Below, in pieces: positions 1 to 54,848 of a stretch of 64,000 nucleotides of DNA; the first letter of the stretch is position 1; each line of letters starts with the position of its first letter. A program made the translations under genes and the position numbers. The notes under the pieces were generated by a model. The model saw only the letters and a list, made by a program, of their open reading frames with translations. It was not told the origin of the DNA and made no database searches. The stretch is from Moniliella sp. 'wahieum' (Eukaryota), in contig RSEE01000090.1 of NCBI GenBank assembly GCA_003971905.1, positions 1 to 64,000 on the forward strand, given 5' to 3'.

Positions 1-2152
1 GGGGCGGATTGTGCTGACCGCGTGACCGCGACGTGCGCCCGGTGCCGGTGCCCGGGCGGCGCGGGGAGAGCCCACGTATCCGATCCATAATGTTATGCTG
101 CTGGTTCAGGCTGAACGCTGAACCTGAACGCTGAACCGTTGAACCGCAGCCTAAGGGCCGAGCCGCTGAATATGCATATTGAGGTCATTGAGGGAAGAAA
201 TCTAGCAGAAAAGTGGCCAGTGGATGTGCTAGCCTCTGCGCTCGCTAGTCACTAGTCACTAGTCACTTGAACGTGAGACCTTGGGATCTTGAGATCGATC
301 AAGCTTGTCGCGGGTCGCTTGTCGCCGTCCCTCCCAGCTTGAAGCTTGAAGCTATTCCGCTGTTCTTAGTACTAGGTGTCGGAAACGCTGATGCGCTTTC
401 GCTTTAGGGGCGGGAAGGTGGAACACCGACGAAAGTCTCCGTCACCGTCAACCGTCATCGTCATCGTCATCAATCGCACGCAGTCTGTCCTCTGTCATAC
501 TGCACAACGCTCTTTCTCGCTGTGGTCGTGTAGCCGTTCTATCTGTCGTCGGCTCCACGGTTCCTATGGGACGGACCAAGCTGCATGGGTATGCGCGGGG
601 CATGCCCATGGACATGTGCTTGCGTGCTAACCCGAACGTTGACTGAGTACTAGGACTGAGGTATGAGGTATTACTAGTATCTAGTTATACTGAGCGCTAA
701 AGCCCAAGGCGCTGAGGAAGAGCATCCTATATCGTGCGGACCGAGTCGTACATACGTATTCGCCGCTGGCCTCAATTAAGTTCCAACGTAAGGTTCAACG
801 GACCGGTACGCGTACCGCGTACCGCGTACCGTTCAACGCCGGAACGTCTAAACCGTGAAGCGAACTCGGGAGCCGCAACGCTGAAGCGCGGAGCTGGTAT
901 AGCATTGGTGTCCGCTCAAACGTTGCACATATGGAGCGCTGGGGTATCGAGAGTATCGAGTATCGAGGACCGAAGATCGGAAGCGTCAGCGGCATCGGAT
1001 GCGGGTGGGTGCAGCCGGCAGCAGGGGCCGAAGCGTGCTATCGTAGTACCAGCGCGAGTGAGCGACACGGGGGGACACAGCGAGAAAGGGGGAGAGGAGC
1101 GGTGAGGGGTGAGGGGTGCGGCCTAAGCCTGAGGCGTGAGCAGAGGAAAAGCAGAGCAGCTGGTGCGGGTGGGATAGGGGGCTGAGCTGGGCTAAGTACT
1201 AAGTGCTGGGCTCAAGTCTGGGCTGGGGAGCGCGGCGCCCGGAGCAGATTCGGCCGAGATGGGATCGGGGCGGCGGGGGGCAGGCAGTGGCAGTGGCAGT
1301 GGCCCAGCACCAGCACCAGCACCAGCGCCCGAGGCGGACCAGGCAGGGCGCGATGGGTTGGGAAGGTTTGGGACAATGAATGAGCCACTGGCCCTGGCGA
1401 GCGCCGAGCCCCAGCCCGGCATCCCCAACACACCCGGAGCGCCTAGGCGTCACGCGTCACGCGTCACGAGTCACGCGTGCTCAGCCCTTGGCCTGAGCCC
1501 ACACCGGCGCAGCAGGCGCTCCCAACCCTAGTGCCTCCTGCTGCGCTGGGAAGCAAGGAGGGGGCGGCGGCGCCGCGCTGACATGGACAAGGCAGGCGCA
1601 CGCCGTGGCAGAGCAGGGGAGGCACTCGGCAGGCAGCGAGGGGATCGGGTATCCAGCACCCAGCAGCTAGTATCCCATGGTCGATGGTCCAGGATCCAGG
1701 ATCCAGTACCCACGTCCCCACGGCCCACTGTCCAGACCCACTCCCGCCCACGGCCCAGAGCAGGACAGTGGCCGGACGCTGCGGCCCTTAATTCGGCGGC
1801 CGAGCAGCCCGCCGCGCCGAACCAGACACTGGCGCCGTGCACGCGTGCTGGGCGGCCGTTCCTGAAGCGCAGGGGCAGTCACTGGTCACCGCTGGGGGCG
1901 GGCGCCCGGGGGCGGTGTTGTGCACGGGCACGGCAGCGCACTGCTCCGTCAGCGGCGCCACGCCCCCTCCGCCACTTGGAAGGCCGACGCGTGACGCGTG
2001 AGCCTTCCGTGACGCTTGACGCTTGACGCCCCGCGCCCCCTTCGCTTCTCCCGCCGCCGCCGCCCTTGTTTCGCCCGAGCGCTGTGCCTGCTGCTCCCTC
2101 CGCCTCCTGCCGCCACACCACCTCCACCTCCGCCCTCGGAGCGCCTGCCGCC

Positions 2153-4602: not shown

Positions 4603-7600
4603 CTAGCACTAGCTACCTACCTAGCTACCGACCTAGCTTCTTGCTTCTTACTTGTTACTTGTTACTTGTTACTTCTAGCTACCAGCTTCTCGCTTCAAGC
4701 TTGCGAGATCGCCTCGATCACCTCTCTGGATCACCTCTCTGGATCACCTCTCTGGATCACGATACTTCCGGGGGGACTTTTTTCCTCCCCCTTTCCCCCC
4801 CTCGTCTCTCGTCCTTCCTCTCCCCTCTCTCCTCTCTCGTCTCTGGTCTCTCGTGCCTCGTGCCTCGTCTCTTTCATACATCACTTTCCACCCCGTGGGC
4901 CTCGCCTGTCTCCCTCCGGTCGGATCGTAATGGCTCTGGTATGGTGCTGGTATGGTGCTAGGATGGTGATGCTAAGGTGATGCTGTGCTGCTGGTATGGG
5001 ACTGTTGGGTGCGGGGTGCTGGGTACTGGGTACTGGGGTACTGGGAACTGGGTTCGCTTGGCAGAAGGCCGGCGGCGGCATACGACGGTGCCGACGAGCA
5101 GACTTGCGGGGGGGGCTGGTATGCGTACGAAGTCCTACGTCCTAAGGATGGAGCCAAGCGGCGTGCAGCTTGATGTGGCAACCAGCGTGGCATGTGGCAG
5201 CCCGTCGTCCACAGGGCCGTACGATGCAAGCACTACGACTTACTACTTACTACTACTACTACTACTAAAGCAAAAACCTGGGTGGGTGGCAGTGGGTTGC
5301 CGTGGGTTGCCGTGTCTTGCACTAGGCTGTAGGATGGTAGTAGCACACGTATTGTGGCAGGCGAGCAAGGCAGAACCAGAGTTAGGTCTGGGAATGGTGC
5401 ACATCCAATCTACCAGAGCCCACCCAGAGGCACAAACAAATAGGGGGCGGAACACAGGCGGAACGCGGCTGCTGCGCACAAGGTTTCCAGTATGCCCGAT
5501 AGCGCTGACCGGTGACGCGTGACGTGTGACGCGCCGACTGAGGTATCACATGTGCGGGTCCGATCATATAGGGATGGGTTCCTATGGGGGGTTTTGCTAC
5601 GAACCGGTTTCCTATAGGTTGCTACGATATAGTTTCCTATGGGTTCCGGCTATACGGTTTCCTAAGGGGCCTCAAGCCTCAGGACCGTCGTTGAAGGTTG
5701 AAAGTTCAGTTGAACTGCAACGGTGAGGAGACAGAACGCAAGCACCAAGCGCTATAGCCAGCTGCCCAGCTGCCAGCTGCACCTCGATGAGGCCTCCTCA
5801 GGCCTCAGGCTGGAATATACGTTCACCATGGTTCTGTGATCGCAACAAAAGCCGATCCAGAGATCAACACACTCCGACCAAGCACAGTCATTAACCATTC
5901 ATCGACGCCGAGTGTTGTACATTCACGTGCATGGGCATGAACATGATCCATTCACTCGCACCATTTCACCTCGGGCCTGGGCCTCAGGAATCAACCATCA
6001 ACGTTCAACGTTCAACGCCTCAAGCCGTGGCGCGCCGTGTGGATCTCTCGGGTACTACGCTCTCGCCCCAGCAGGCCACATGCGTCTTGCCTCTTCAAGC
6101 TTCAAGCTTCAGTGGTGCCTGTGACCTCTGTGACCATATTCTCACGCGGCAGCTTGAAGCTTGAAGCTTGAATCTAAGCACAGCCGCGGGGTTAAGTGAC
6201 GCGCGTGACGGATGTATTGGGCTGCATGGATAAAGGATGCATGATGCAGGATGGTCGATCACATGTCTAGGGGCTAGTTGTTGGGTCCATGGGACCGCAA
6301 TGGGGGCTATAGATGCCACTCTGCTGCAGCTGTGTGGGTGGGAAGAGTATACGGAGAAGGGCAATGTGCCGGCGGTTTGGGAGCCGGGCGGTGCTTCCAG
6401 GTACTTTTAGTAGTTTTGTTGATGCCGGCGGAGTATGTGAGGTCAGAGGTGTGTTCAAGATACTTGTTACGACCCGTCAGCTCAAGCGAGAGATGAAGTC
6501 TCGTTCACGTCGTTCCAGAGGGATAAACGTCCTGTGGGCACATGTTCCTTTCAATGCACAAAATACTGATGATCTCATTCGTCTTCTGTGGGGTGTCGTT
6601 CAAGGTAAAAGAGGCTCCATCTCCATAGTTCATTATGTATCTATCCAACGGAGTGCTGGGCCGAGTTTACCTGGTACACTATCAAAGGGTAGTTACCCCA
6701 CCGCTGTGTTTCGATCTTCTTGTTGTTGTTGTTGTCACAGACCGGTTCATTCACAGTTGCACTTGCGGCCAAAACTCATCTGTAAAACAACACTTGGCTC
6801 ATTATCATTGGGGTGCATTGCCCACTCTTATAAGGTAACGCAAAAGGCAATACCCCGCGTTTCGTTGCGTCCCTTTCATCTCACAGTGCGGATATACTTA
6901 TTTACTGGTCTCGTCGCGCGAAAAGTAATATACGGCCAATGCTTTTTTCTGTGAATTTGGTCGCCCTCTACCGGTCGAGCAAGACGAGGTGGGGGGGGCA
7001 CAGTTGGATACTCAAACGAGAGACCATGTCGCTCATAACAATTTATCGACACGTTAATCACACGTGCTTGAATCCTTTTTGTGCATTCCCCCGCTTTTCG
7101 CCGAGAGCTTTACCCGCATTATATTCACGCCTTGTCTTAATTCATCAAGGCGCGGTGCACCGAAGTGGATCGCGTAATATAGGATCCCTGTTAGATGCCT
7201 GTTCCCAATGGAAGGGCACTCGAACATCAGACTCCTCAGACCCTCAAGCCTCAGGGTGCTAGGCTTGCAGAAGATCTCTCAGGCATCTCAGATCTCACAG
7301 AGGCCTCAGAACCTTAACGCTGTTATCCCGTACTTCAGAGAAGCTCCTTCTAGAGCTTTAAGCTTGGTGAATGATTCAAGGTATGTGCTCACAACCGTGC
7401 TCATAACGTATACCAACTAGGTTCAACCCAATCGTGGGTCCCTTCCTGATGTTGCTCTGGGATATGATCTTGCATGGGCTGGGGGAAGGCGCCAAGGGCT
7501 GGCAAGGTAACCAGTAATTGTAAAGGCAAGGCAACAGAGGACAAGGCCTGGGTGCTAGTTAGTTACTAGGTTACTACGTGCGGCAGTGGTTACTGCTTCC

Positions 7601-8454
7601 TGGTTATAGACTTTTAGACGTTACGCGTTAGGCCTTACATGCTTACACCAGAGGGTACAGCACTGTGACACGTCGTGACGTGCAATGTGACGCGTGACGT
7701 CCAGGTGCTCGGGGGGGCGGCACGGGCGGCAGCGGCAGCGGCAGTGGTGGCAGCCGAAGTGTGAGTGGAGAGCTTGAAGAGAAGAGCAGTGACTAGTGAG
7801 CTAGTGAGCTAGTGAGTACGAGTAGCGGCTACTCAGTTGAAGAGTACTCAAAATCTCTGCCATTTTGCGCCGCCACACTGCCGCCACACTGCCGCCACCC
7901 TTTTCCCACCGATGGACCCGTGCGGACGGGGGCCTGGACATCAGCGATGGTCGATGGCCATGAACGTTGAACTCTTTTCATCGGATCATCCATTCGGCCC
8001 GCCGGACGTATCCACGGCAGCAGACGTCTGATGGTTGCGGCCGCCAGCCACACGCGTGGCCACCTACCCTGTCCTATGCCTGCCCTAGATCCCCTAGATC
8101 CCACCGGCTTGCCATCGCTGTCACCCAGCCTCGCGCGCTTTGCGCTGTCGGACAATAGATCCGCGGTGGTACCTACTGTTTGTACTTATGCTTCGTCTGC
8201 TCCCGTACCCTGCGTCGGCAGGGGTCAGTGATCTGGTGATCTTCGAACGCATGTGCTGCCTGATCGGACGGTCACCGGTCACCGGTGTCACGTGTGCACG
8301 TCACCTGTCACAGACCCCGTGTCACCTGTCACCTGTCACCGGTCACCATGCCAACGCATCTTGCACTCATTCTTTCATCCATCCATCCCTCCATCCACCC
8401 ATCCATCATTCCAGTGGGCCATCCGTCCATCCATCCATATATCGGGGACACATC

Positions 8455-8614
8455 TGTTGACATCCGTCCTAGGACCGCGCGGACCCTGAGTCACGTGAGT
8501 CAGCTTTCATTCCTTCCGAGCTCGCACCAGTCTTCTGGACGAGTCAGTCGCAGAAGCTTCTTAGTCAAATACGACGTTCAGTGCTCACATTCTTTGGTAG
8601 TAGCGAGGCCGACA
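8455..8614 (+). repeat. 5' LTR (160 bp)
   Basis: TGTTGACATCC...GAGGCCGACA. Differs from the 3' LTR by 2 substitutions and 1 indel on visual alignment. Confidence 0.97.
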
Positions 8615-8627
8615 GAGTTACATCCTT
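8615..8627 (+). other. Putative primer-binding site, non-canonical (GAGTTACATCCTT)
   Basis: Directly follows the 5' LTR CA end. It lacks the TGG start of tRNA-3'-end sites; see findings. Confidence 0.45.
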
Positions 8628-8667
8628 ATCTGCTCATCCCTGAGCTGGCCAAACTACACCCACAACC

Positions 8668-9911
8668 ATGGGCGCCAACGCTAACACCGATCTCTCGGTC
8701 AGCGACACCACAATGGTGAACAAGCGCGATTACTGGACACCAACCGGTCGCGATCCGCCACCGATTGGCACCGACAACGAGGAACTCATGATGCTTTGCG
8801 CCGAAGCGCACCTGTGGTTCAAGAAGACGAACGACATCGATGTCGTTAAAGAGAAGATCAACAGAACTATACACGACAGAGCCGAGTGGCTTGGATGGAA
8901 GGACGAACCTACGTCTATCACGACAAACTGGGTTCGACGGGCTACGAATTTTGTGGTGCAAAACATCCACCAAATGGAAACTCAACCCAACGCAACTTTG
9001 GGGGCACCTACAGGCGCAGCCTCGCGACCCGAGTACGACCTTTACAGATCACTACGCGAGTCTCCCACCAAGAATATCAAGTGGCCTGATCTGAACAAAG
9101 ACCCGTCCGCCTACAGCGCTTGGGAAGACGAATTTCTCTTCGCGATAACAGATGCCCACCCCCACGCAAGCGACGTCGTCCAGAATGGTCGCAGCTCCCG
9201 CTACTTCACCGAGGACCTCGACAGACGCTTGCACAACCTTCTTAGGGAAGCCATGCCGTCAACCCTCTTCCGGACGATCCGCACCCACACGAAATATGCA
9301 CCCAGGACACGCTGAACATGCTGCGTCAGCGGTATGGATATACGCCTACCGCAAACAGAGGGCCTCTACTCATTCGCTACTTTTCGGCCGACCAAGGAAA
9401 CCGATCGGGTCGAGACTACCTCGACTACATGGAAGAGATCAGTGCAAGCCTGACGCGAGCGGGCATCCCACTTACGGAAGAGCAGGAACGCACTGGGATC
9501 CTACTCGGCTTACGCGACATGAGCATTCGCCAGCGTGAAGAGCGCTCGAGTCTAGACAAGTTACGGCAGGCCGTGATGACATACCAGCCGCCACGTATCC
9601 CGGTGGAGAAAGGAAGAGAAACGGAGGCAAGCCGGTCAACGGAGGAACGCCTTGGACTCGACCCGACAGCGGGGGACGACCCACCAGCGGGGGAAAAAAA
9701 CTCCAGCGGGGGCAAAGCCGGCGACGACAACCTCGCGGACACAAAGACCAAGGGGCAAGACCGCACCAACCAACCCTGGCGCAGCGCGACGTCTAATAAA
9801 CCTGTTGTCCCTCCGCGCAACCCAGGCCGAGCCAACGCTCACGTCGCTCAGAGAGCGAGCTCTCCCGAGTCTGAAGTGATTGACGTTGATGCGGGCACAG
9901 CTGACTACTAG
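8668..9911 (+). CDS. gag: Copia Gag; one apparent frameshift near 9295; ends at in-frame TAG
   Basis: ORFs 8668-9315 and 9318-9911 join with one extra A in GAAATATG. Y.AW...F and L..L..RYG segments resemble Copia Gag. No CCHC knuckle seen. Confidence 0.8.
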
Positions 9912-12900
9912 GAACTCGGGGGCGAAATGCGAATCATCCGGGCATTATATGACAGTGGGGCATTCCCATCCATTTGGAAAGACAAATCCGTCTTCACATC
10001 CATGACCCCTTGCGACGACGAGATAGAGGTTGCTAACGGGACACATGTAAAGGCGGAAGGACGAGGCACGGCCACAATCCGTATCCGATGCTTAGGAGGA
10101 CACCAAATGGAGATAAAACTCCCCAACAGCCTATACATGCCCCGTTTCAGCCGAAATCTCGTCAGTGTAGCACACCTGTCGAACACCGGAATCGCATCAT
10201 ACTTCGCCCCACACCAGAAGGGTATCTGGCTTGGTAACCCAGGATCCACCCTACGAAAAGTAACCGGCAGTGACTATCAATTCACGATCTTACACAACCC
10301 GCGAACGCCACCCACCCCTGCGGGCCATGGCGACCAAACCGATCAAACCGGCCGACCCCCCCAACCCCAAACTCCCTCGCAGCATCCCTGGCCCTGGACC
10401 ACGTCTCTAAAGCCCCAAACGCTGGAACCACGCATCGACCTCCTCCCCTGGCTTACACGATCGGAAACCGCAGGCCTCCGCGTCACAGCCAAGCATATCT
10501 CCCTCTGTCGTTCAGAGTGGGATTGCCCAACATGCGCGGTGGCACTAGCGACAGCATCGCCCCATCCGAGCCGGGACCGCCTCCGATCCAAAAGACCTTT
10601 CGAGGTCCTCCACGTCGACGTAGTAGACCTCCCCCGGGTAACCGGCATGGGGCACGGATACGCCCTCGTCGCCGTTGATGACTTCACGCGGTACGTCTTC
10701 ACCACAGCGATCCCGACAAAGGGCGCTGCAACAAGAAGGAACTGCGGACCTCATATTGCGGGAGCAACGCTACGGCCCGGACAGACTGCTGCGGACTTTG
10801 CGCACGGACAACGCCCCCGAATTGACAAGCGCACTGCAACCTTTTCGGACGAGCAAGGCATCAATCATCAGAACGGACAATCCCGGGGCAGAGTGCAGCA
10901 ACGGTGTGGCTGAGCGTGCCATCCGAACCATAACGACTCGTGCAAGGCAGTTGCTCTTGGGTACAGGTCTTCCGACGTCGGACTGGTGGGAACACAGCCT
11001 CCACGCTGCGTGCTTCACCCAAAACCAAATGCCACTCAAAACATCCGGGGAAGACAACAAATCGCGATTTGAGCGATACAAAGGCCACGCATACTCGTTA
11101 CCGATGCAACCCTTTGGCCGCGTTGCATACCTCCATCTGCCCGAGTCACGCCGCGAGCACAAGCTCAGCGCGCGGGCAGAGGAAGGTATGCTGGTAGGAT
11201 ACCACCATCAGCGCGGATCAAAGGGATGGCTCTTCGCCACATACCAACCATCCCTGGGTACCTTCACCTACCGCTGGTCGAAACCGTACAAATGGGGCAA
11301 CGCCATCTACCCCCATCTCCACCCCGACCACTTCCCACCCGACATCTCCAAATCACCTCAAATTAAAATCGACAGTGAAAAAGACGCTAACCCTACTCCG
11401 CCAGCCGCGGCAGCACCCATGCCCCGAACCGCCGCCACACCCCAGACACCCGCTCCCACCACCACCCCCCCTCCGCGCCGCTACCCCCTCCGCCAGCGCA
11501 CCACCCGCACCTCCCTCGACCTGCACACACTCCCAATCGCTGACGACCCCACCGACACGACCTACCATGCTCGTGCTGCAGCCGCCACGCCCCACTGCGC
11601 CGCACCAGAGATCGGCATCGCCCGCCCCCTACCTGACACATCCGCCCCCCCGTTTGCCGACACAGTTCAACCTCCCGAATACGCCGCCATGACTGCTCTC
11701 AGCGCACCCATCCACCCGGACACGGTTCAGCTCACCAAGGATGGCGTACCCCTCGCTCCCAAGACGCTCAAGGGTCTCGAGACTCACCCCTCCTTTGCCA
11801 TGGTCAAGCAGGCTATGGCCGACGAGGTGGCCACACTCGCGCGATACGGCACCTACGAGGCTACGTACCCACCACCGGGTGCACAAATCCTCATAGGACT
11901 ATGGCGCATCACCACAAAGACGGACGCCGAGGGCCGGTTCCTGCGCCACCGCGCGCGCTTTGTCGCGGGCGGACACCAACAATCGGCCGAGACTTGGGGC
12001 CAGACGTTCGCACCATCGGTGCGCACACCTGCCATCCTGACCCTCGTCGTGCTGGCCGAGAAGTATAAGTTTGGCCTCTTCTCGGCGGACGTCAATGCAG
12101 CGTACCTGAACGCCCCCCTCGAAGAAGCAGTCTACATCCGCCCACCCCCCTACTTCCCCGAAGCGGGTGGTCGCGTGTGGCGTCTCAAGAAGAGTCTATA
12201 CGGGCTACATCAGAGCGGAGCAAACTGGGCACGATACATCCGGAACCTGCTGCGTGACAAGCTCGGCTTCACGCAAAGCTTGACCGAGCCCTGCTTGTTC
12301 GTGCGCGCTGCACCACCGGGTGAGCAGATCCTCCTGGCGGTCCACACCGACGATCTGCTCCTCGCATGCAAGTCACACCAAAAGTACGAGGAGTTTATGG
12401 CCGAGATAAACACACACATTGATGTTCGTGGTAACGGTCCCCTTCACTACCACCTGGGATGCCAATACGATCGGATCGGTGGGGAGCTGTACCTGAGCCA
12501 ACCAAAGTTCATCGAGGAAGTGGTGGCAAAGCACCACATCAAAGCCCCGTGGATCCGGACTCTCCCACATCCCGTACGGATGATACCGCCCCGTGCCGAC
12601 CCTGAACCCCCATCCCTCCCAGCCTTGCGCAAGGCATATCAGGGGAAGATCGGATCGGGACTGTGGGCTGCACGAATGGGCCGGCCTGACTCCCTCTTCG
12701 CTATCACGGCCCTCAGCAGAGCCGCTGCCGACCCATCGCAGCAGCATCATCAAGCAGTCGATGACTTCCTTCGCTACCTGTACCATACTCGAGGAAAGGG
12801 CCTGAGGTTGACCCCAACATCAGATGCACCGGCCATTGCGCTGTATACAGATTCCGACTTGGCGGGAGATCCCATCCAGGCACGCTCCACATCTGGATGC

Positions 12901-13347
12901 CTACTGATGGTGTACGGTGTGCCGGTGTCGTGGCGATCCATTCTTCAGCCGAAGAGCGTTACCAGTACCGCCGCCGCCGAATATACGGCAGGATATGATG
13001 GACTGGTTGACGCCAACTATGTCAAGAACATCATGATCGAGCTTGGGGCCATCGGCGAGGGTACACCCATTCATTGGTATTGCGACAATAAGTCTGTCGT
13101 CGATCTCGCCCACAAATTTGGCAGCACCGGCAAGCTCCGAGAGCTGAAGATCCGGTACCACAATGTACGGCAACACGTGGACTCGGGCGAGGCCATACTT
13201 GTACACATCCCCGGCGAAAGGAACCCAGCGGACGTCCTCACCAAGCCTCTCGGCCGTCCCGCCCTGACAAGCCATCTTGCTCAACTCCGCGTCGAGGAGA
13301 TGGATCCAGTCCACATGACTGGGCCCTCCGGTCAGCGGGGGTGTTGA
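9912..13347 (+). CDS. pol: Copia Pol (protease, integrase, RT, RNase H); apparent frameshifts at about 10250-10500 and 10740
   Basis: Protease YDSGA. Integrase CPTC, HVDVVD, VDDFTRY, RTDNAPE, NGVAERAIRT. RT ADVNAAYLNA, LKKSLYGLHQSG, HTDD. RNase H YTDSDLAG, CDNKS, NPADVLTK. The stop TGA falls at the start of the 3' LTR. Confidence 0.97.
13334..13341 (+). other. Polypurine tract
   Basis: AGCGGGGG immediately before the 3' LTR TG. Confidence 0.8.
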
Positions 13348-13500
13348 CATCCGTCCTAGGACCGCGCGGACCCTGAGTCACGTGAGTCAGCTTTCATTCC
13401 TTCCGAGCTCGCACCAGTCTTCTGGACGAGTCAGTCGCAGAAGCTTCTTAGTCCAATACGACGTTCAGTGCTCACATTCTGTGGTAGTAGCGAGGCGACA
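13342..13500 (+). repeat. 3' LTR (159 bp)
   Basis: Near-identical copy of 8455-8614, followed by TSD ACATC. Confidence 0.97.
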
Positions 13501-13508
13501 ACATCAGG

Positions 13509-13932: not shown

Positions 13933-15641
13933 ACTACATCAACATCAATTCATATCGGCACGTGCTACGGGGGGTGACACAGTGACGTGTCCCGTGGTAC
14001 GCGCCGTCTCAAAACATCACCCAACGTCTGTCTTTCAGGTGCGTGTGACATTCCAGCAGTAGAGCTGCTTTTGCATCCTTCCCCCATTCCATTCCATTCC
14101 ATCCCATCCCATCCCCTTCGTCCCCTACCCAGGCCCATCCCACCCGCTGCCGTCCGCGGCCGCTTTCGCCTCTTCCCTGCGCCAATTCCTTATTGCCAGC
14201 TGCAATGCCCAAAGCTTGTTCGGCCCGTGCGCTGGGTCTCTGTGGTTCCCGCCCGTGCCTCGCTCTTCCGCGTCCACTTCTGCGTATCGGTGCGTAGCGC
14301 GTATCCCACAACGCACACAGCACAAAGCACACCGAACACAAGTGACAAGCCATCGAGTCACTAGTCACTAGACATCGATCATCTAGCCGCTAGTCATTTG
14401 GTCCAGTCGCTTGACGACCTTGTCCTGCGCCATGCACAACAACCATTCCGCAGAGCCCTCATCGTATGTGAATGTGACCGGTGATGTCTGGATCAATGAT
14501 CGATGATCGAGGTGGAGGGGCGGGTTGAATTTTACGCTCGCAGTTCCCAACGTCCAACCAGCTCCGATCGCTTCCCATTCACTCTCCAAGCTTCACGCCC
14601 CTCCCACTCCTCCAAGCCTTCAAGCTTTATCGATCATCTACCATTACCATCACCTTGGCATGCACCTGGGATGAATGCATCCCGCTTGGGCTGGGTTAGG
14701 TTGCCTTCTTTTGGCCCCTCATCGTCCTGTCGCGTGCCCCCATCCGTCCCCGTCATGGTCACGGTCACGCCGTCACAGGCATGGTCACGATCACAGCCAC
14801 GGTCACGCGGGCACGAGAGCCCATCGTTCCTGGACGAACGGCCTGCTGGCAATGAACGCCGAATGTTGAAGAGCCTGAGGCCTGAAGGTTGAACCGTTTG
14901 AAGCTGGACATGATGCATGACCCACGGTATGCGTGGTGCATGGTGCATGGCATACATGGCAACGCGGACAAGCATTTCAATCCCCCGTCGATCGCATCGT
15001 TCGAAGGTGTCACAGACGTGCTCCGCGTGATATGAGCCAGGTCCCATGTGACAGGCGGTGAGCATCTGGCTTTTGTGCTTCTATTTGTCGTCCCGTGGTC
15101 CCGAAAACGGTGACCTGCGCTGGTGAAGTTGGCGTCGCGCAGCCAAGGCGTTCGGATGCAAACATACTCCTTCACGGACGGAGGTGTGCTGTGGAGAGCG
15201 TCGATCAGCCCCCAGGCCTCAGGGCCTCAACTGAGCTGAGTGCCAGGCTGGCTGGACGATGCAAGGGTGGGAGGCGTCAGGCACGTGGGGCCTTCAGGCC
15301 TCAGGGTAGAGGACTCCGGTCGGTCACACCATTATGGCCGTTGCAAACACCTAATTGCTTGTGATGACTTGACGTGGAGCGTGAATACGAATGTTGGATG
15401 CTGACATACTCTCTTGTTTTGTTTGCTGCTCTTTGCCCGTCTATCGGCTATATCACTGGCCGTCTACCGTGACATGCCATTCATGCTCTCTTGGATATCG
15501 TCTGAACTATGCGGACCCTGTCTGCGCTTCTTCTGATCTGGTCCTGCTGACCTGCTTGATGGACGACTGTTTTGTCACATTTTCGCCTTCGCAGCTGCTA
15601 GGATCTTTCAGTCCAGAACTGCTTCCACCACCCCACCCTGC

Positions 15642-35859: not shown

Positions 35860-36483
35860 TGGGACCACTCCAGGCGGGCGTTGGCTTGGTAGAGCAGAGC
35901 CGGCGGGAAGACAAGGCACGGCAAGGCCAGCCTGGGCCAGCGCCCGCCCAGTCGCACGCGCCGTGGGAGACAGCGCCTGTGCCCCCGCCAGCTCCCCACC
36001 CCCCGCTGCGGCCCCCTTTTCATTGCGCCCGAGCATGGTGCAACCCTACGCCCGTCTGCCCCCCCGCTGCCTGGGTAACCCTATCGCCCGATGCTCACGC
36101 GCTCACGGCATGCTGCCCGACGTGATGTATGTGTGATTGTGATGCCTCAAGTCTCGGGGACAGATTGAAATGTGAAATGGCACGCGTCTCGAAATGATGG
36201 AAGCGTCACGTGCAGGACATGCGACACGTGAGGATCGCACGTGACCGCGTGACCCACTTCCCACTGGCCTGTCACTGTGACGCGACCACTCCTACCACAG
36301 TCACATGTCACATGTCACATGCGACCGCCATCCGACCGACGCCGACGTCTAACTATTCCTCAACACATCCTCTCGCACGGGAATGGATTGGATCGCGTAT
36401 GGATCGACAGAGTGTTGCTGGCACCCATCGCCACACGTCCAGCACGCATGCACCCGCATGCACCCAGCGCGTCCCTCGGCAGC

Positions 36484-39030: not shown

Positions 39031-41344
39031 AGACAAAATAATATCACCGATTGTTGCTGGTGGCTGGGACGGTGGCTGCGCCACCCGGTGGCTGACGTGA
39101 GGCTTATGTAAAAAGTGCACAGGCGTTTCCCATCGCTATATTCTCTAGGGATGTACGTTCTCATCGTCACACTAGAAGCACTAATCGATAATCATCGTAG
39201 GATGATCGATGACAGACGGCGCTTTAATAAAGTGAACTTCACTGCCGAGGTTAATGTTGCGATGCGGGAGAAGCACCACTAGTGCGCCGGTGAGAAACCG
39301 CGATGGATCATGGATCATGGATCATGGATCGCCATCGAGTCTGTTGTATGTCTGTCGCCCAAGTGACAAGAAAAGTGGGGTTTGTGACATGGATTCGCGT
39401 ACGCTCGAAGAGAACCACATTTTGGCCGCGGGTTTCGGTTTCGTGTTTGGATGTGTGTGCGACTCTATTAAATGATTGGCATCGATGAAGTTCTTCGGGG
39501 GTGTACGTCGATTAATACTAAGCCTTAGTAGTAACCATGCATGGACGATGAGTACCTCAGTACTGAGTCTCAGTACTCAGACTGAGTGAGATGCAGGTAG
39601 GTGTCTCTGGTGCGGCAAGCTGAGACCCTAGATGGTCTTCATCCACTGACCTTCCTGTTGAAGACATTGAAGCTTGAAGCTTGAAGCTTTGACGCGTTGA
39701 CGCTTGACTTCAAGGCCCTCTCACACGCTTCATCCCATGCATCATGCTCCAACTAGTAAGCATCCACGCCAAAACACGGCCTAACTTCGCAACCACGCAT
39801 GGATAACCAGGAAGAGGCAGCCAGGACCGTAATGCATGGCAGCAGCGGCAAGGATGAGAGAGAATGGGCCATTTCAGCAAGACGGAGGGATAGATTTGGG
39901 GCTTTTTCTTGTTGAGATAGAACCGATGCCGATGAACATATGTGAGCGCTGAGCGCCGGTGAAGACCATGCTTGTGTCGCCACCGCCTTGTTCGTCGATC
40001 GGAGTAGGACGTCCAAAGACAGGTACATTGGGCCTCGACAGAGACTTTCATCCTGGCATTATCGACATCATGCATCATCGATCATGATGACGAGATGCCT
40101 TTAGGCGTTTAGACGTTCAGGTTCAGTTCAGCGCTCAGCCTGAGCAGCTTCTAGAGCACCAGCAGGACCATCACCGATACACTCAACACATCAAACTCAG
40201 GACAATCGATCAGCGCTCAGCTGAGCGGCCTGAGCGGCCTGAGCGCTCAGGTAGTGCTCAGTGTCAGCCCGAGAGTGCTGAGGCTGAGCATCGAGATCAT
40301 CCTCCAACATGATCTAGTTTGGCAGACAGGAGGAAACAGGACGCGTCCGCAAAGTAATAGAATACACCGGGTGCCGAGGGTGCCCATTTTGTGCCACCAT
40401 TTGCCCAATGTGTATAGCACGCCCGCCTCAGATCACATGCACACACAGGCTCAGCGCCCTCAGCATCTCAGGCTTCAGGGCCCCAACATCATCTGCCAGT
40501 CTTCTTCTGACCGCCACACGCAGAACTGCCTGGTGCAGAGAGGAGATAATATGTGGATGATAGAAACGGGCCGAGCTGCTGAGGCTCAGCGGTCGCTGAC
40601 CGCCACCCTCCCCACGAGACGCAAACGGCGCCCAATCCTCACTGCCTTTACACCTGCCCTGTGCCAGCGATCGGCCAAAAGATGGGGTTGTGAGGCCTGA
40701 GCCTGAGGCCTGTGTGAGGGCGGTGGGAGCATGTGACATGTGATGGGCACACGGCGGCGTCGGTGCGATCTACACCGATCTGTGATTTCTGATCGCACTG
40801 GCCGATCTAGCTGCTATCTCACCGGCCCACTGTACACTGCCGGTCTCGCTGGGTTGATCCGCACCACCTGCTTGTGGGCCAGGCGTGGGTAGCTTCAAGC
40901 GTCATGCATCATGAGTCGCCTTGTGGGTCCGCCTACTAGGTCGCCTAGGTTCGTCCGCGGGCACGCCCTAGCAGTCCTATACCAGGTCGGAGCACACTGC
41001 ACTGTCGCTGTCGGAGCCCAGGCCAGGCCAGCCGCTTGCGGTGTGCGGCTGGATGGCCACCAACAGCACGTGTGACATGGGCTCGTTCACTTGCACGCTG
41101 AACGTGACCGCGTGACCGCGGTGCCATGGTCATGGACATGGGACAAGTGGTCGATGATCGATGGTGATTATCTCGATCATCCCAGTAGGCCTGCGACTCT
41201 CGTACCAGTCCCTAGTCACTTGACGAGCTGACGAGCACGGCGCCAGCCTCGGGCGCGTGCTGGTGTCATGACATACATGGTACATGCTGCCCACTGGGAC
41301 GCCCTCTGCTGCGGGCGGCTATCCGTTGCTGTCCACGGACGGGG

Positions 41345-47237: not shown

Positions 47238-48387
47238 TTTGGGATCGGGATTGGGATCGGGATCGTCCTGATGCTCTCTCTCTATCCCCTCTATCATCTC
47301 TGTTATCTCCCTCACCAATCATCTTCGCTACCCCTTCGGTTCCTTTGTGTCCCTATCCCTACCAGCATCACCCAGCAGCTCTGCGCCCCGCTCTGCGCCA
47401 CCTGCGTCTGCGCTTCCCGGACGTTCCCTTGTCCGGCCCCTACTACCCCGGCACGTCGTACCCTGCCACTATTTCCCTCTCTTTCCTCTCCTCTCTCTCG
47501 AGCTCAGGCGATTCGATCCGAGGCGATTCGATTTGATGGTTGGTCGCTTCAGCCTCTGCCTGTAACTTGTAACCCACAAAGAGGCAATAGGCAATAGGCA
47601 ATAGGCAATAGGCAATAGGGGGCGGGGCGATAGGTGATAGCCGATAGGCGATAGGTAATGCAACGAGAACGCGCTTGTGTGATTTATTCTACTCCTCCGC
47701 TGAGCTGTCTTTTCTTTTCTTCTTTTCTTTCTCTTGTTCTCTCTCTTTTTTTTCTCTCTCTTCTGACTGATCTGACTTGGGTTGGTTTCTCCGCTTGCGT
47801 ATCGCGCATACCGAGCGTAGCGAGCATATCGAACCGATCGAGCATATCGAGCAATTCCCTCCCCCTCCCCCCCCCCTTCCCGCCTACTCTTGATTACTTC
47901 CTGGCTTGATTGTTTCCCCGCCATTCCCACGCGTCTCTGCTGCACTGCTGTATTGCCTCCCCTTCCTCCGTCTCCCCTCTCCTAGGGAGGGCAGGATGGG
48001 AGGATGGCATGGGCGGGGGTTCTTCTCGTTTCTCGTTTCTCGTTCTCGTTTCTCGCTTCTCGGGGGCACAGCGTGGCTGGGCCTAGGGAAGAAGTTGATT
48101 GTTGATTGACTACGTCCTTTATTTCCTAGGTAGAGAAGTTGATTGAGGGGGAAATGAGGAAATGAGCAAAGGGCAAAAACAAAGGGCAGGAAATGCATGT
48201 GCAGGAAGTCAAGTGGAACGCGAATGGCAGGAACCGGAAGGGGAACATGGAGCTTGGAGCTTGAGCGTAAAGATACGGCGTAACGCGTAAGGGTCAATGG
48301 TCAAGGTGAAGGGTGAAGGGTGAAGGGTGAAGGATAAAGCTTAAAGCGTAAAGGTGAAGGCGAAAACGGCACGCGTTTGAGTTTTTT

Positions 48388-50311
48388 TTACTCGGGTCCA
48401 CGGTAGACATAGTACTTGCGAACGAGGTGGAAAGTGAGCAAGTTGAATCGCAGCAAACACGCAGTAGACCAACCCGCCTTTCCCGCCATCGAGGTACGAC
48501 AGCGCACGACGAAGGGGCAAAACGTCGAGGCAAGCGTAATGTTGCTGACCAATTGATGCTCAGCCACGGAACCAGCCAACGACGCCGCTTGCGGCGGTAC
48601 AAGTTCGGGCAAAATCAAAAATGGTACGGTCCCAGACCTACCGCGAACCCGTCACAAATACTAAGATCATCAGTGCCGCCAGCCAGCCAGCAGGGTCAGC
48701 TCCAAACTCAAGCCCAGCACTGATGTCGCGATCACAGAGACCATCGTCGAGAGTAGCAGCAGCCGTTTCCGTCCAACACTTCTCCGACACGAGCAGAATC
48801 GGCGGGAACCTGGTTCGAAGGGAAATACCACCCAAGAGAGCAAGGTGAGGCGGCGGGGGGGGAGGAGGTCAGGATTCGGGCACTCGGGATACACCCAGAA
48901 GTCGACCCTACTCAGCGTAGGTCGTTTGCACGGAAAGGAAGGGGACAGGGGGGGGGGGGGGGGAAGACGTACGTCATCAGCGCATTGACCACCGTGATGG
49001 TGACCGACAAGGTCCGAACAATCTCATCCTTGTTGGCATGATCGGCAAACAGGTGCGCTCAAGATGCCCGACGAGTAGTACAGAATCGCATTCAGCCCCG
49101 ACAATTGTTGGCCCACTTGGGTCACTACGATCATCCACATTCCCGGATGCAAGGCCGGGTCGGTAAACAGCGCTTTGACCGTGATGGGCCGGCGGGGCAT
49201 GGTCATCGGCAAGCGCGGCAGGCGTCGAAGACGGCGCGGACGGGCGGGCGGAAAGGCGGCTGACGTTCGTCGGTCGTGTCGGGGCCGAGGGGCTGGCTGC
49301 GGCGGCGGTGGCAGTAGCATGGCAGTGGCAGTGGCAGTGGCAGTAGCCGTGGTTCGCGGTGGGTGGACTGGTGGTGCCGGGGAAGCTTCCACAGCACCGA
49401 CCGAGACGGACGTAGGCTCGGCCACCCACAACAAGTCCCGAATGCGATCGGCTTGCGCCTTGGCCTGTGCGCCGCCGCTGGTTTCCGTCGACACGGGTCC
49501 ATCGACAGCCAGCACCACGCCCCAGATCAATTGGGCCAAGGACATGGCTGTACTCATCAGGGGGACCAACCGCCAGGCACTGCTCCTCTGCTCGCCTCCG
49601 CTGGGCTGGTCGCGTACGACGCCAGGGCAACGCCAATACTTTGGGCGACCACGATGCCCACCACGTTGCCCACTTGGTTCAGCACGCCGATCGAGCCCTT
49701 GATCGAGGGCGGGGAGATGTCGCTGTGGAAGGAAGCGAAAGGAAAGGGAGGGAAATCACAGAAAAGAAAAGAAATGCGGGTTAGGGCTAGGGCGCATGCG
49801 GGCATCTGAGCAGAGAGAGAGGTAGGGAAGCCAAGGCAGGCAAACCGTACTTGAGGTAGACGGGCACGGCGACCAAGGAAAAGCCCGAGCCGAGACCAGT
49901 GACCAGGCGCCGAGCCCGCCACGGCGCCCGACTGGGCCACGGCAATCAGCACGTTGCCCAGCTCATTGAGCGTGAGGGCAGCAAAGAGGGAGCCGCGCAA
50001 GCCGAGGCGGAGGGCGCGCTGGACCAGGGGCAGGGTGGCGGAGCCGACCAGGCCCGACGGTGAAGAGGGCGGTGACGAGGCCGAACTGGGTGTCGGTCAG
50101 GCCGAGGCAGTCGAGCGGGGGGGCTGAGGAGGAGGCAGGGAGGAGGCTGTGGGTAGCAGGTCAGTGCGCCCTGGAGGGCATTGAGCTCGGCAATGCCGTA
50201 GCCGTAGGAGAAGGAGCTGAGCGTGACAAAGAGCACGACGAGGTAGAAGAAGGGCCGTGGGCGGAGGAGGGTGGCCGCGGGCGCAGTGTCGGGGGGGGGT
50301 TGGTTGGTCAT
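48388..50311 (-). CDS. MFS sugar-porter family transporter (Vps73/YBR241C-like); at least two introns at about 49723-49850 and 48890-48973
   Basis: SSFSYGYGIAELN, ISPPSIKGSIGVLNQ, QQLSGLNAILYYS, GLGPVPF.ILPELVP and INW are sugar-porter signatures. Confidence 0.9.
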
Positions 50312-51050
50312 GGCGGGGGGGGGGGAAGGGGGTGGGGGGGAGGGGGGGGAGGGGATGGGATGGGGATGGGGATGGGATGCGATGGGGAGGGGATGGGGAT
50401 GGGGGAGGGGGATGCGGATGCGATGCGGATGGGGATGGGAGGCTATGTGCATTGCGGTCTTTATCGACTTGTGCGTGTGGGATGCGGCGCAGAGACGCGA
50501 GGGCGGCGGTGCAGGACACTGCCCCCCCGCGCGGGCAGGCGGCGGGTGGGCCAAGGGCGGCGTGTTTGGCCAGCGGCGAGCCCCGGCATGACGCGTGAGT
50601 GCATTCCCCACGCGCCACAGAGCGTCCACGCGCCCTGCTCGGCCATCACCGTCACCCTCCACACGATGCCCTCCACGCGCTTGGGCGTGCTCGGGAGTGG
50701 ATAGTGCTTGCTATGCTGATCCTGATATGATATTGATGATTGCCCGCGGACCATTCAGGCAGCGCCGCAGCCAGTTCGATGCGCGTTCCGCCCCCGCGCG
50801 GAACACCCGATGAGTCGCCGGCACCAATCACGCGACGGCGCCTGCGCGACGCACACTGGCGCCGTGCGGGCGCCGGCAGCGTGCTGGGGTTGGTGGTTTG
50901 TGGCTCTGCGGTTGCGCTTCGACGCGTTGGGACGCTTTGGGCCGACGCATTCCCCGCCGCATTCAGCCGCCGCCGCCTCCCGCCTCCCGCACCACCACCA
51001 CCCCCCCACCGCCCCCCCCGCCCCCACCGCCCCCACCGCCCCCACCACCC

Positions 51051-53286
51051 ATGGCCCGCTCTGCCACCGTCCCCGTCGGCGGCCCTGCCCGCCCCGGCGA
51101 GACCCGCGTCCACCGCGCCTTCCTCAGCCCCGACCACCTCGTCGAGCGCCCCGCCGACGCATCAACACCATGGCCGACCTCCTGCCCGCCGCCGCCAAAA
51201 GTGCGTCTCCTCTCGTCTCTCCTCCCCGCTTGCCTCGGACTCCTGACCCCCCCCCCCCCCCCCCCCCGCAGAGTTTGGCTCCAAGCATGCCGCCGGGTGG
51301 CGCGACGTGATCAAGTGCACAACGAAGCCAAGGAGGTCACCAAGACTGTCGGCGGCAAGGAGATCAAGGAGACCAAGAACTGGCAGTTCTACGAACTGTC
51401 CCACTACCACGTATGTTCTCCTCCCCTCCCCTTTCTTGTTTCTTTTCTTCTGACCCCGCCCCCCCCCCCCCCGCAGTACATCTCCTACACGGAAATGCTG
51501 GAGCAGGTCAAGATCATCTCCAACGGTCTCTTGGCCCTCGGCCTCAACAAGGACACCCACTTCAACATCTACTCCCAGACCTGGTATGTGTTGCTCGCTA
51601 TCTCACCGCTCTGATTTTCGAGTGGGTGGACTGACTTGCTGCTTGCTTTCCAACCTCCCACAGCCTCAACTGGCAGCTTGTCGCCCACGCCTGCTTCCGC
51701 CAGAGCATCGTCTTTTGCACGGCGTACGACCGCTGGGCGAAGATGGTCTGACCTTTTCCCTCGACGAACCCGAAGTGGTCGGCATGTTTACCAATGCCAA
51801 TCTGCTGTCCATGTTGGCCAAGGTGGTGGCCAACACGCCCCACCTCAAGTATGTCATTTACGATGGCAAGGACGAGGCCGGCAAGGCTGCCGCGCTCGAT
51901 GCCGTGCTGACCGAACGCGGCGGCAAAACCTTGACGCTCGACGAGCTCATTGAGCTGGGTAAGACGGTGGACCAGGAACCCACCTTGCCCTCACCCGATT
52001 CGTTGGCCTGCATCATGTACACCTCGGGCAGCACGGGCCAGCCCAAGGGTGTGTTGCTGTTGCACAGGAATGTCGTGTCATCGGTGGGTACGGTGACCTT
52101 GCTCCTCGGCCCGTACTTTGCTGCGGACGATACCTTGTTGGCCTACCTGCCCCTGGCGCACATTCTTGAATTTGTGGCGGAATGTTCGTTGATCCACCTG
52201 GGCTTGACGTTGGGCTATGGCCGGGTCAAGACGTTGACCAATGCCAGCGTGCGCAACTGCAAGGGCGATCTGCAAGAGTTCCGACCGACCTTGTTGGTGG
52301 GCGTGCCGACGGTGTTTGAGACGATCCGCAAGGGCATTTTGGCCAAGGTGAACCAAGGTGGTGCGCTGAAAAAGACAGTGTTCAACACGGCGCTCGCACT
52401 CAAATCGAGCGGTTTGCCCCTGGTTAAGAATGTGGCCGATTTGGTGTTTGGCCAAGTGCGGGCGCAGACGGGCGGCCGACTGCGCTTGTCCTTGTCGGGC
52501 GGCGCACCCATTTCGCATGCCACCCAATCCTTTATCGATACCACCCTGGTCCAGATCCTGCAGGGGTACGGTATGACCGAGTCGTCGGCCATGTGCGCCA
52601 TTTGCACCCCGGAGTTCAACTCCTTGTCGAGCGTCGGCGTCATCTCGCCTGCGATCGAAGTCAAGTTGGTGGATGTGCCTGAGGCTGGGTACAAGGCGAC
52701 CAACAACCCACCGCAGGGCGAGGTGTGGATCCGTGGTCCGGCCGTGTGTGCCGGGTACTATAAGCAGCCCGAGTTGACCAAGGAAACGATCAACGACGAG
52801 GGCTGGCTCATGACGGGCGACGTGGGCCAATTCAACAAGGACGGCACACTGTCGTTGATTGACCGTAAGAAGAATTTGGTCAAGTTGGCGGGCGGGGAGT
52901 ACATTGGTCTAGAAGCGTTGGAGAGCACGTACAAGAGCAACGTTTTGGTCGGTAACATTTGTGTTGTTGCCAACTCGGACGCTAACAAGGCAATGGGCGT
53001 CGTCTTCCCCAACGAAGCCAACTTGCGCGCCCGCATTGAAGCGGGTGACGTGCCTGGCGTCCAACCGGACTGGGACTTGCACAAGTTGTGCGACTCGAAA
53101 CCGGTTGCTCAATACGTCTTGGCTTCCCTCACTGCCACGGGTAAGGCCGCTCGCTTTGCCCCGCTCCAGTTGCTCCAAACTGTCTTGCTTGTCCCGGACG
53201 AACTGGACATGACTGCCGCTCAGAAAATCGAACGTAAGAAGGTCGAGGCCAAGTATAAGAAGGACATTGATCGCATTTACCCGTAA
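51051..53286 (+). CDS. FAA1: Long-chain fatty acyl-CoA synthetase (Faa1/Lcf1-like); introns 51201-51271, 51411-51476 and 51584-51663
   Basis: IMYTSGSTGQPKGV (AMP-binding), YLPLAHILE, QGYGMTE, GWLMTGDVG, IDRKKNLVK..GGEYI.LE.LE. Confidence 0.95.
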
Positions 53287-54848
53287 GCGTCTCCATGCCC
53301 GTTTCGGTAACGTGCACGTCAAGATGAAGGTGAAAGGGCGGGCTACGCTGCCCCCCCTTTCCCCCCCGCCTCCTCGGACCTCTCAGATCTCAATCCCTCA
53401 ACCCTCAATATTAAACCCCTCAATATTCACCCATCAACACTCAACCCTTTACCTCCCTTGCCTCCCCTTCCCCCTATGCGCAGCACCTTAGCTCCTCGCT
53501 TTCCGCGCTCTGGCCCTTTATGTTCTGTTTTTTTTTGTGGCCTGGTGGCCGTGGTGGTTCTGGTGGCCAGGCTCGGGCTCGGCCAATGGCCGTTCCATGT
53601 TCCATGACCGGCATGACCACTGGATTCACTTGGACGTTTCACGTCAGTCAAGCTAGTCATTAACTTCAAGCTTCATTAGCTTCACTAGCTTTCACTAGCT
53701 TCCCTAGTTTCACTACTGTTCACGTCACCGTTTCACTGTTCAAAGATTAATCTTTAAATGATCGATGATCTCTTTCTTTCTTTCTTTTTTTCTTTCGTTT
53801 TGGCTTCGTGTTTTCGTTGGTGGGAGATTGTGCGTGGGATTGGTTGTGCGTGGGTGGTGGCGTTTCTTGGTGCGGTTATCGATTACCGGCAACGCGTTGT
53901 TTAACGTTTAGCTGCGCTTCATCGACGATCGAGAATCGATCGATAAATCCTGTTGGTGCGCTCGATCCACGCACTCCTGTTGGTCAGTCGGTCGGTCGGG
54001 CTCAGGCTCGGTCGGGCTCAGGCTCGGTCGGGCTCGGTCGGGCTCAGGCTCGGTCGGGCTCGGTTGGGCTTGGCTTGCGACTGCAAAAGTTTTCCAGGAC
54101 ACGCGTCAGTTTGTCTCCTCCTGCCATGTCGCAATGTCACATCTCATATGCCTCGCATGCCACACCTCGCATGCTACATGTCACAATATATGTGTTTCCG
54201 TTCGCCTCGTTGTTCGGCCCCTGTTTCGCTTGCCTCTCGGTTTTGCTTTCGCTTTCGCTTTCGCTTTCGCTTTCGCTTTCCTCAGTCTCTTCCTCTCTGT
54301 TTCCCTGCACCGTTCCCCTTCTTTCCCCTTGCCTTGTAACCTGTAACATGGTAACCCTGCTGGATCCCTCGCCTTTCCCTCGCCGTTCCCTCGCCTTTCC
54401 TCCGTGGTGGTCCTCGACTCTCGACCATTGAGAGTACTTGCCGTTGACCACGCTACACTCCCCTCCCGTCCCCTCCTCATCTCTCCTCTCTACTCCACCC
54501 CCATATTAGTTCAGTTCAGTTCAGTTCAGTTCAGTTCAGTTCAGTTCAGTTCAGTTCAGTTGTTCAGTTCCCTTCCCTTCCCTTTTCACGTCACGTCCCC
54601 CCTGTTCTACTTGTCTTTTTTCTCTTTTCGCTTTTCGCTTTTCGCTTTGTTTCTCCTTTGTCTTTGTCCCTTTTCTCGTTTGACTTGGTTCACTTTGGTC
54701 TTTTCTTTCTCAGGGCGCTTTGGGTCTATGAACCGCCCCACCCTCTTCGTATCGGTTCCTCCTTCTCCTCCTTCTCCTTCTCTTTCTCCTTCGCTCCCTC
54801 ATCGCCCCATTCCACTGCTCTCGACCATTCGTGATCCGCCGGTCCGTC

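Follow-up and report, generated by a model that had tools for sequence, protein, structure and literature searches.

The hAT, Transib, MULE and RAG systems are described as forming hairpins on the DNA that flanks the cut, after which host repair leaves footprints (PMC5499845), and the Ac/Ds footprints of Candida albicans are presented as short deletions together with P-nucleotide palindromes, with a bias specific to the host (PMC5873905). Target duplications of 7 bp are recorded in Basidiomycota for hAT7, from rust fungi (Pucciniales), and for Kyakuja, from Laccaria and other Agaricomycotina (PMC12730594), while Transib, which prefers GC-rich targets, is presented as alone among the DNA-transposon superfamilies of eukaryotes in making 5-bp duplications, soybean rust being its sole fungal case in a 2005 survey (PMC1131882). 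New inverted repeats are also generated under the four-point template-switch model, which is presented as mechanism-neutral (PMC5453318). The subject of the present work is a sequence pattern in 64,000 nucleotides of Moniliella sp. 'wahieum' (assembly GCA_003971905.1, contig RSEE01000090.1, positions 1 to 64,000 of the forward strand; this whole stretch is referred to below as the window), in whose non-coding DNA a TNA triplet alternates with a palindromic tetramer to form short arrays in a 7-nt register. Full-text searching of the literature, with subscription journals outside its scope, turned up no account of a heptamer pattern of this kind.

The arrays follow a rule that can be written as the 12-mer xy-TNA-y'x'-xy-TNA, in which two direct copies of a five-base segment are separated by the inverted complement of its first two bases. 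The counts presented below show that the elementary event is a 7-nt insertion beside a TNA triplet, which turns xy-TNA into xy-TNA-y'x'-xy-TNA. The pattern works like the footprint of a flank-hairpin excision, but two things prevent its assignment to an element family with a name: no such element was found in the window, and a test for the spectrum of footprints that one would be expected to leave did not find it.

A 12-mer rule at TNA triplets

All counts are confined to this one 64-kb window, and a core is defined as TNA-N4-TNA with a palindromic N4 and the same N on both sides. A first-pass annotation, made from the letters of the sequence, had described pure arrays that repeat one palindrome and mixed arrays that keep the register while the palindrome changes, and this observation is confirmed: every pure array that it named was found in its place, as exact period-7 runs of at least 16 nt and, for TGA-GGCC, at 21784-21793, and the five mixed arrays (5502-5533, 7621-7641, 14358-14384, 22027-22066 and 40068-40084) read as it had described them. 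Exact period-7 runs of this minimum length number 43, of which 14 have as their unit a palindromic hexamer plus one base; in 13 of these 14 the unit is TCA or TGA plus a palindromic tetramer, a unit that simple arithmetic with uniform base composition assigns to about 1.4% of runs by chance.

The same annotation had proposed that palindromic spacers be compared with non-palindromic ones, and when this comparison is made on the window the TNA-N4-TNA words prove to be palindromic in 76 cases and non-palindromic in 106, while simulated palindromic words have means of 6.4, 4.8 and 10.7 and maxima of 15, 13 and 25 under Markov backgrounds of order 1, 3 and 5 respectively (100 simulations each). For the same-N palindromic cores, the window holds 66 in 64 kb, compared to 1.8 expected from 60 simulations of order 3. 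The control on real DNA consisted of 80 eukaryotic metagenome loci totalling 630,373 bases, which were retrieved with an alignment of an acyl-CoA ligase encoded in the window; they encode ligase relatives that are at most 54% identical at the protein level, and they were used solely as a control set. These loci contain 47 palindromic and 632 non-palindromic words, a share of 6.9% that is at the level of chance, and palindromic words with a flank that fits the 12-mer rule number 8 in the 630-kb control, as against 56 in the 64-kb window.

Coding DNA and the Copia element had also been said to lack the arrays, and this holds: open reading frames (ORFs) with Pfam support, which span 15,469 bases and contain 457 of the 2,185 TNA triplets of the window, are free of all 66 cores. 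Coding DNA is represented in this comparison by ORFs with a Pfam match, which is a narrower set than a full gene annotation; the Pfam scan covered 153 of the 184 stop-to-stop ORFs of at least 140 amino acids, the 198 ORFs of 90-139 amino acids being outside it.

Counted on both strands, the rule 12-mer occurs 71 times at 47 loci, compared to 0.25-0.8 times in Markov simulations, and in words of the form xyTNA-NN-xyTNA the spacer NN is y'x' in 71 of 133 cases, where chance would give 1 in 16. The relation of each palindrome to its surroundings was evaluated with a flank test that asks whether the second half of the palindrome is repeated in the two bases that precede the first TNA, and whether its first half is repeated in the two bases that follow the second TNA. 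Among the 66 same-N cores, both sides match in 15, the left side only in 21, the right side only in 20 and neither in 10, and at least one flank thus completes the 12-mer in 56; for the 44 isolated cores the corresponding numbers are 6, 16, 15 and 7. Because the palindrome is templated by its own flank, many different palindromes come to share one register, and because the matches can be one-sided, the starting site need not itself be palindromic. The rule also emerges from maximal period-7 runs with exactly five matched bases, of which there are 117 compared to 44.6 expected; 29 of the 117 obey the inversion rule, compared to 5.0 expected, and TNA stands at the far end in 16 of these 29.

The anchor of the rule is narrowly defined. 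The same-N palindromic test yields 66 cores for TNA but 10 for CNG, 6 for GNC and 5 for ANT, and when all 64 triplets are tried at the TNA position of the 12-mer, 71 hits fall to the four TNA triplets and 69 to the remaining 60 combined. Where T-N is not followed by A, period-7 runs with four matched bases obey the rule 7 times, compared to 4.3 expected. That TNA works while CNG and GNC do not argues for recognition by a protein rather than for a turn driven by base pairing. The central N is copied directly, with the same N in 66 cores and complementary Ns in 3, and the structure is therefore not a long inverted duplication. The identity of N tracks the background (55 cores with C or G and 11 with A or T, TNA triplets in the window being divided 1,663 to 522), and of the 16 palindromic cores that could exist 14 are in use, each roughly as often as its dinucleotide is found just before TNA.

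The inverted segment is likewise exact in length, since among lengths of one to four bases the excess is confined to two: one, three or four inverted bases are not in excess, with 20 of 69 (chance being 1 in 4), 3 of 47 and 0 of 49 respectively. Other classes of product that could be related to the rule were also counted. Replacement of one base of a 7-bp duplication gives 12 hits, with 33 for the other three bases, which is the ratio of chance; plain TNA-centred 7-bp duplications are not in excess (2 of the 22 exact two-copy heptamer duplications); double palindromes between TNAs amount to 1 of 83 TNA-N8-TNA words, and that one does not fit the flank rule; and palindromic spacers of six bases are not in excess (1 compared to 0.4 expected). 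Palindromic spacers of two bases do exceed expectation (16 compared to 5.0), with no consistent flank rule and with two of them inside the Copia ORFs. A search for inverted bases taken from the TNA end returned two pure hits, both in one array at 39303-39330; this array, (GATCATG)4, is the only one whose two inverted bases could stem from that end (xy-TCA-TG).

Alongside the intact cores there is a decayed class: when the spacer between same-N triplets is not palindromic, as in 76 cases, a single change separates it from a palindrome in 45 and two changes do so in 31, where random tetramers would be divided 2:3. Two relatives of the pattern lie off its period, namely TGA + GCTAG with period 8 and 4.4 copies at 7784-7816, directly after a TGA-CTAG-TGA that conforms to the rule, and TGAGCGGCC twice (period 9) at 40222-40240, among GCGC and GGCC scars; an additional base in the scar, or the nesting of one event in another, may account for them.

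The process seen in the window is thus a templated insertion of 7 nt with a fixed anchor and fixed lengths, which is absent from the ORFs tested and decays over time. With no core in the Pfam-supported ORFs and with 45 cores decayed by a single change, it behaves like neutral or deleterious mutation, and the best reading of the arrays is that they are mutational scars and not functional motifs.

Candidate mechanisms and known systems

The explanation that we favour, at a probability of about 0.45, is that the arrays are stereotyped scars of the excision of a cut-and-paste transposon which forms flank hairpins and makes a 7-bp NN-TNA-NN (or a 5-bp) target duplication. A protein that recognises TNA would make a double-strand break, the flank end would be sealed as a hairpin, and the hairpin would be nicked two bases from its tip to yield two P nucleotides, after which the ends would be joined without loss. 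In the 7-bp geometry, NN-TNA-NN would be duplicated and two P nucleotides derived from one copy would take the place of two bases in the other, while in the 5-bp geometry a duplication of NN-TNA together with two P nucleotides would give an identical product; in either case each scar would represent one insertion followed by one excision. The 7-bp geometry is favoured because it would place the symmetric TNA at the centre of the cut, and because duplications of this length are documented in Basidiomycota. Both new heptamer junctions would abut TNA, and we infer that a cut directly 3' of TNA on the strand that enters each hairpin could give the product.

The argument for excision comes from the content of the 12-mer. 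Two inverted bases that stand next to a direct repeat where there was no prior homology suggest a closed hairpin nicked away from its tip, and the direct repetition of flank bases suggests a staggered cut of the target. As would be expected of footprints, the joint retains a direct repeat on either side (the 5-nt xyTNA, in 56 of the 66 cores), and the inverted (P) nucleotides are templated by the adjoining flank (in 71 of the 133 words). Of the origins that the first-pass annotation had suggested, a hairpin or template-switch mutational process at TNA is therefore supported in outline, with the palindromes templated by the two bases beside TNA, and a transposon that targets TNA becomes the most likely agent; the latter proposal needs to be amended, however, in that the duplication is of 5 nt (or of 7 trimmed by 2) rather than of the 3-nt TNA, and neither the Pfam scan nor a search for terminal inverted repeats found such an element in the window.

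Several results weigh against this explanation. The spectrum of footprints that variable P length would produce is absent and only one type of product is in excess, in searches that recognised products of defined shape and not deletions, whereas the Ac/Ds footprints described for Candida albicans are heterogeneous, with 28 types in 128 excisions (PMC5873905). The sole transposase found by Pfam among the 153 scanned ORFs of at least 140 amino acids is the Copia polyprotein, and no convincing element with terminal inverted repeats and duplications of 7, 5 or 3 bp was found in the window. The inverted bases come from the variable end and not from the TNA end, so that a symmetric model with two hairpins needs extra assumptions, and about 55 arrays, which fall in 19 of the 64 one-kb bins, amount to a very high density for footprints of excision. 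The search for terminal inverted repeats returned a lone weak candidate at 40133-40590, consisting of 444 nt with GCTCAGC on both sides and inverted ends of 10-12 nt, which formally fits NN-TNA-NN; its ends are built of local CTCAG/CTGAG scar motifs, and it is probably due to chance.

When the pattern is set beside described systems, each likeness is accompanied by a difference. As far as the sources cited above describe them, hAT, Transib and MULE footprints and the P nucleotides of V(D)J coding joints share with the arrays a target repeat on both sides with short inverted copies of the flank in between; here, in contrast, there is one product, with exactly two inverted bases, no loss, and an origin in the end that lies away from TNA. 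The enzymes of the hAT group use flank hairpins. With hAT7 and Kyakuja, as presented in their source, the arrays would share a 7-bp duplication within the same phylum, and NN-TNA-NN would centre TNA in the staggered cut; the hosts given for them belong, however, to Pucciniomycotina and Agaricomycotina and not to Ustilaginomycotina, and the likeness concerns the length of the duplication rather than the target consensus or the footprints. No transposase of the hAT7 or Kyakuja type was seen among the scanned ORFs of the window. A 5-nt direct repeat plus P nucleotides, which is the literal content of the 12-mer, is what the description of Transib would lead one to expect, but NN-TNA would be asymmetric within a 5-bp cut, and the scanned ORFs include none that is Transib-like. 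Short template switches, in the four-point description and in quasi-palindrome conversion of the Ripley type, resemble the pattern in that a new inverted repeat arises beside direct sequence in one event; the switches described under the four-point model vary in length and are not tied to one triplet, whereas here both anchor and lengths are fixed. Lastly, PIF/Harbinger and IS5-type elements share the target word, with a 3-bp TNA or TWA duplication, but the scars duplicate 5 nt including two variable bases and not 3. Excision of mPing is mostly precise. A 3-bp TNA duplication was rejected as the origin of the pattern, since by our reasoning no derivation from it yields the observed product.

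Two other mechanisms could generate the same product, and we regard both as rather unlikely. A host enzyme, either a domesticated transposase or another nuclease specific for TNA, might cut accessible non-coding DNA and leave the same hairpin repair to follow with no mobile element involved, which would agree with the lack of an element in the window and with the high density of arrays clumped by kilobase; the single type of product in excess would also suggest that one enzyme, and not variable end joining, sets the geometry. There is no known candidate gene for such an enzyme, however, and a direct duplication of 5 nt is the classic mark of the staggered target cut made by an integrating element. 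Alternatively, an error of replication in which the nascent strand turns at TNA, copies 2-3 complementary bases and returns five bases upstream would dispense with an element altogether, as is compatible with the mechanism-neutral four-point model and the new inverted repeats that it is described as yielding (PMC5453318), and by our derivation the product can be written as one switch-and-return with a reverse-complement segment of 2-3 nt. This possibility is ranked below transposon excision chiefly on account of the TNA-specific anchor, given that a turn driven by pairing should favour CNG and GNC at least equally and that the 10 and 6 cores observed for these compare with 66 for TNA. The absence of an excess at T-N sites without A (7 compared to 4.3) and the fixed length of the inverted segment point in the same direction, and in the 31 one-sided isolated events the return jump would have to be made without microhomology.

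Far less probable is a functional explanation, in which the arrays would be binding sites (TGA-N4-TGA) or selected A-NNNN-T hexamers. It is true that arrays occur in non-coding DNA near genes, for instance upstream of the zinc-finger, ABC-transporter and NUDIX ORFs, and some of the hexamers presumably resemble known fungal promoter boxes; but arrays are also found downstream of genes, as at 53383-53910 after the acyl-CoA ligase ORF, 44 of the 55 arrays are single junctions, and many copies have decayed. There is no conserved shared core, because the 14 cores in use track the background and are dictated by the two neighbouring bases, and for the same reasons the DNA-binding or chromatin factor reading TGA-N4-TGA that had been put forward in the first-pass annotation is not supported. 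Ordinary microsatellite slippage, chance or an artefact of sequencing or assembly is hardly credible, even though short tandem repeats of all periods are plentiful in the window (56 exact arrays of period 6 and 33 of period 7, the commonest periods among exact runs of at least 2.5 units). Slippage can neither make two inverted bases nor choose TNA, the rule arrays reach at most 23 nt, against 77 nt for other heptamers, and 44 of the 55 arrays are single junctions in which only 5 nt are repeated; chance would supply fewer than one rule 12-mer; and an artefact would not avoid ORFs.

Arrays, mixed registers and genomic setting

In perfect form, 44 of the 55 arrays are single junctions and 11 are double, with none longer. 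The rule arrays span 16-23 nt, while other heptamer arrays span up to 77 nt; the longest exact heptamer array of the window is (TGGTGCG)11 at 19367-19443, which falls outside the TNA-palindrome rule and indicates that ordinary heptamer microsatellites can grow long here. Below the kilobase scale, finer clustering of the arrays is not significant (15 gaps of less than 60 nt compared to 11.4 expected, P = 0.14). The 11 double arrays do exceed the 2.5-4.5 expected from random repeated hits on TNA sites (P about 0.002 or less), and this surplus means either that scars are better targets or that slippage adds some units. A match on both flanks is found in 6 of the 37 isolated cores with a matching flank, compared to about 2.3 expected, which hints at a preference for symmetric flanks.

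Among the pure arrays, those detected as exact period-7 runs are TCA + CTAG with 3.3 units at 245-267 and TGA + AGCT at 336-353 (both also seen when the sequence is viewed in register), TCA + ACGT at 5998-6017, TCA + AGCT at 6093-6111, TGA + AGCT at 6151-6172 and again at 39667-39689, TCA + CATG at 36300-36321, and TCA + CCGG at 8269-8286, about 170 nt upstream of the 5' long terminal repeat (LTR) of the Copia element. TCA + CGCG at 1447-1478 was delimited with Tandem Repeats Finder (TRF) and has 4.6 units, with an exact part at 1447-1468 and one core decayed to CGAG, and TGA + GGCC has two units at 21780-21793. The exact run of TGA + CGCG at 1986-2001 is one-sided in the flank test, the left flank CG matching and the right flank not. 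The flank test also identifies isolated events in their simplest form: TC-TCA-GA-TC-TCA at 7286-7297, with five direct and two inverted bases and an unrelated right flank; CA-TGA-TG-CA-TGA at 14909-14920; CG-TAA-CG-CG-TAA, on a TAA triplet, at 48279-48290; and GA-TGA-TC-GA-TGA at 57895-57906, upstream of the NUDIX ORF.

The mixed arrays are those in which paired changes had seemed to be required. In register, they read GCGC-TGA-CCGG-TGA-CGCG-TGA-CGTG-TGA-CGCG at 5502-5533, where one of two bases is matched on each side of the CCGG junction; CGCG, GGCC and CATG on TTA at 7621-7641; TCA-CTAG-TCA-CTAG-ACA-TCGA-TCA at 14356-14384, part of which is an exact run; CTAG twice followed by CGCG three times at 22026-22066, with one TCA decayed to ACA and an exact TCA-CTAG part at 22026-22044; and TCA-TGCA-TCA-TCGA-TCA at 40068-40084, which was also put through the flank test. 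A repeat of the event, on either strand and at the new or the old TNA, would extend the 7-nt register. At a TNA with xy on its left and rs on its right, an event of the left type would write y'x'xy leftward and one of the right type would write rss'r' rightward, and because either flank of one TNA is usable, two unrelated palindromes can share a register with no mutation at all. A third palindrome would require one substitution beside TNA, after which a new event would write a new perfect palindrome, giving the appearance of a paired change without paired mutation. The reasoning of the first-pass annotation that slippage cannot swap one palindrome for another therefore stands, but its corollary of paired mutation is unneeded, one substitution and a new event being sufficient. 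All five mixed arrays, once decoded, need at least one extra substitution under this scheme, and at the junctions at 5506, 7628 and 40075, which match on neither flank, one or two of the four flank bases are matched; for such junctions the scheme of substitution plus new event is plausible but not proven.

The Copia-type LTR retrotransposon, identified by Pfam and by comparison of its LTRs, occupies 8455-13496 on the + strand and has no core inside it. The LTRs, which start at 8455 and 13342, are about 160 nt long and differ by 2 mismatches and 1 indel, and by our reading ACATC stands on both sides as a 5-bp target duplication. The domains Pol_BBD, rve, SH3_retrovirus and RVT_2 are spread over two ORFs, 9912-10910 and 10642-13344, which suggests a frameshift or a broken frame between them. 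The element is young, and as the scars are old enough to have decayed (45 cores are one change from a palindrome and 66 are intact), the fact that these 5 kb are free of scars says little about current activity.

The G+C content is 58-64% across the window, and short tandem repeats are abundant (375 TRF rows). The host genes recognised by Pfam are a C2H2 zinc-finger ORF, INO80F, a DHHC palmitoyltransferase, a fragment of a sugar transporter, the NUDIX ORF, an ABC transporter at 24186-28434, the acyl-CoA ligase at 51454-53283 and a GRAM/GT28 sterol glucosyltransferase. The acyl-CoA ligase ORF is 63% identical to its counterpart in Tilletiaria anomala, its best match among named relatives, 52-60% identical to those of Tilletia, Violaceomyces, Ustilago and Malassezia, and up to 86% identical to assembled contigs. 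By these values the fungus is of an Ustilaginomycotina-like kind. Repeats of other kinds include ten copies of the 9-nt unit GCCAATCAG (79% matches) at 17590-17680, at the end of the long ORF 16552-17736, a unit which includes a CCAAT word and for which a coding role (three codons) and a regulatory one are both conceivable; a 21-nt unit in about 9-10 tandem copies at 55051-55281, with identical inner copies, adjoining ATGGTGAGC-like units of period 7/8; and G-rich low-complexity arrays with units like GGGGAT or GGGGAG at 50299-50446 and 59782-59890, on the + strand and close to gene starts.

Significance for the genome

A broader interpretation, which we advance tentatively and consider on the whole doubtful, is that a hitherto undescribed and highly site-specific DNA-breaking activity, belonging to an active transposon family that has a 7-bp NN-TNA-NN target and is always repaired alike on excision, or to a host enzyme derived from such a transposase, writes an exact and templated 7-nt scar at TNA across the non-coding DNA of this lineage. 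If this is true, then each scar would be a better, palindromic target than the site it replaced, and the process would extend itself and seed heptamer repeats, while the genome would be a readable ledger of thousands of events of break and repair and of a fixed rule for the opening of hairpins.

Should the excision reading hold, the fungus would carry, throughout its genome, a natural record of a single defined reaction of break and repair. Its density would suffice to mould promoters and other spacers and to give rise to a class of short tandem repeats (13 of the 43 exact heptamer arrays of the window), it would suggest that a very active element or enzyme targets TNA, and it would provide an assay of hairpin opening in this lineage, always two bases from the tip, that needs nothing beyond sequence. 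More generally, where non-coding DNA seems to show paired changes or a grammar, templated mutation can be the source, and selection need not be.

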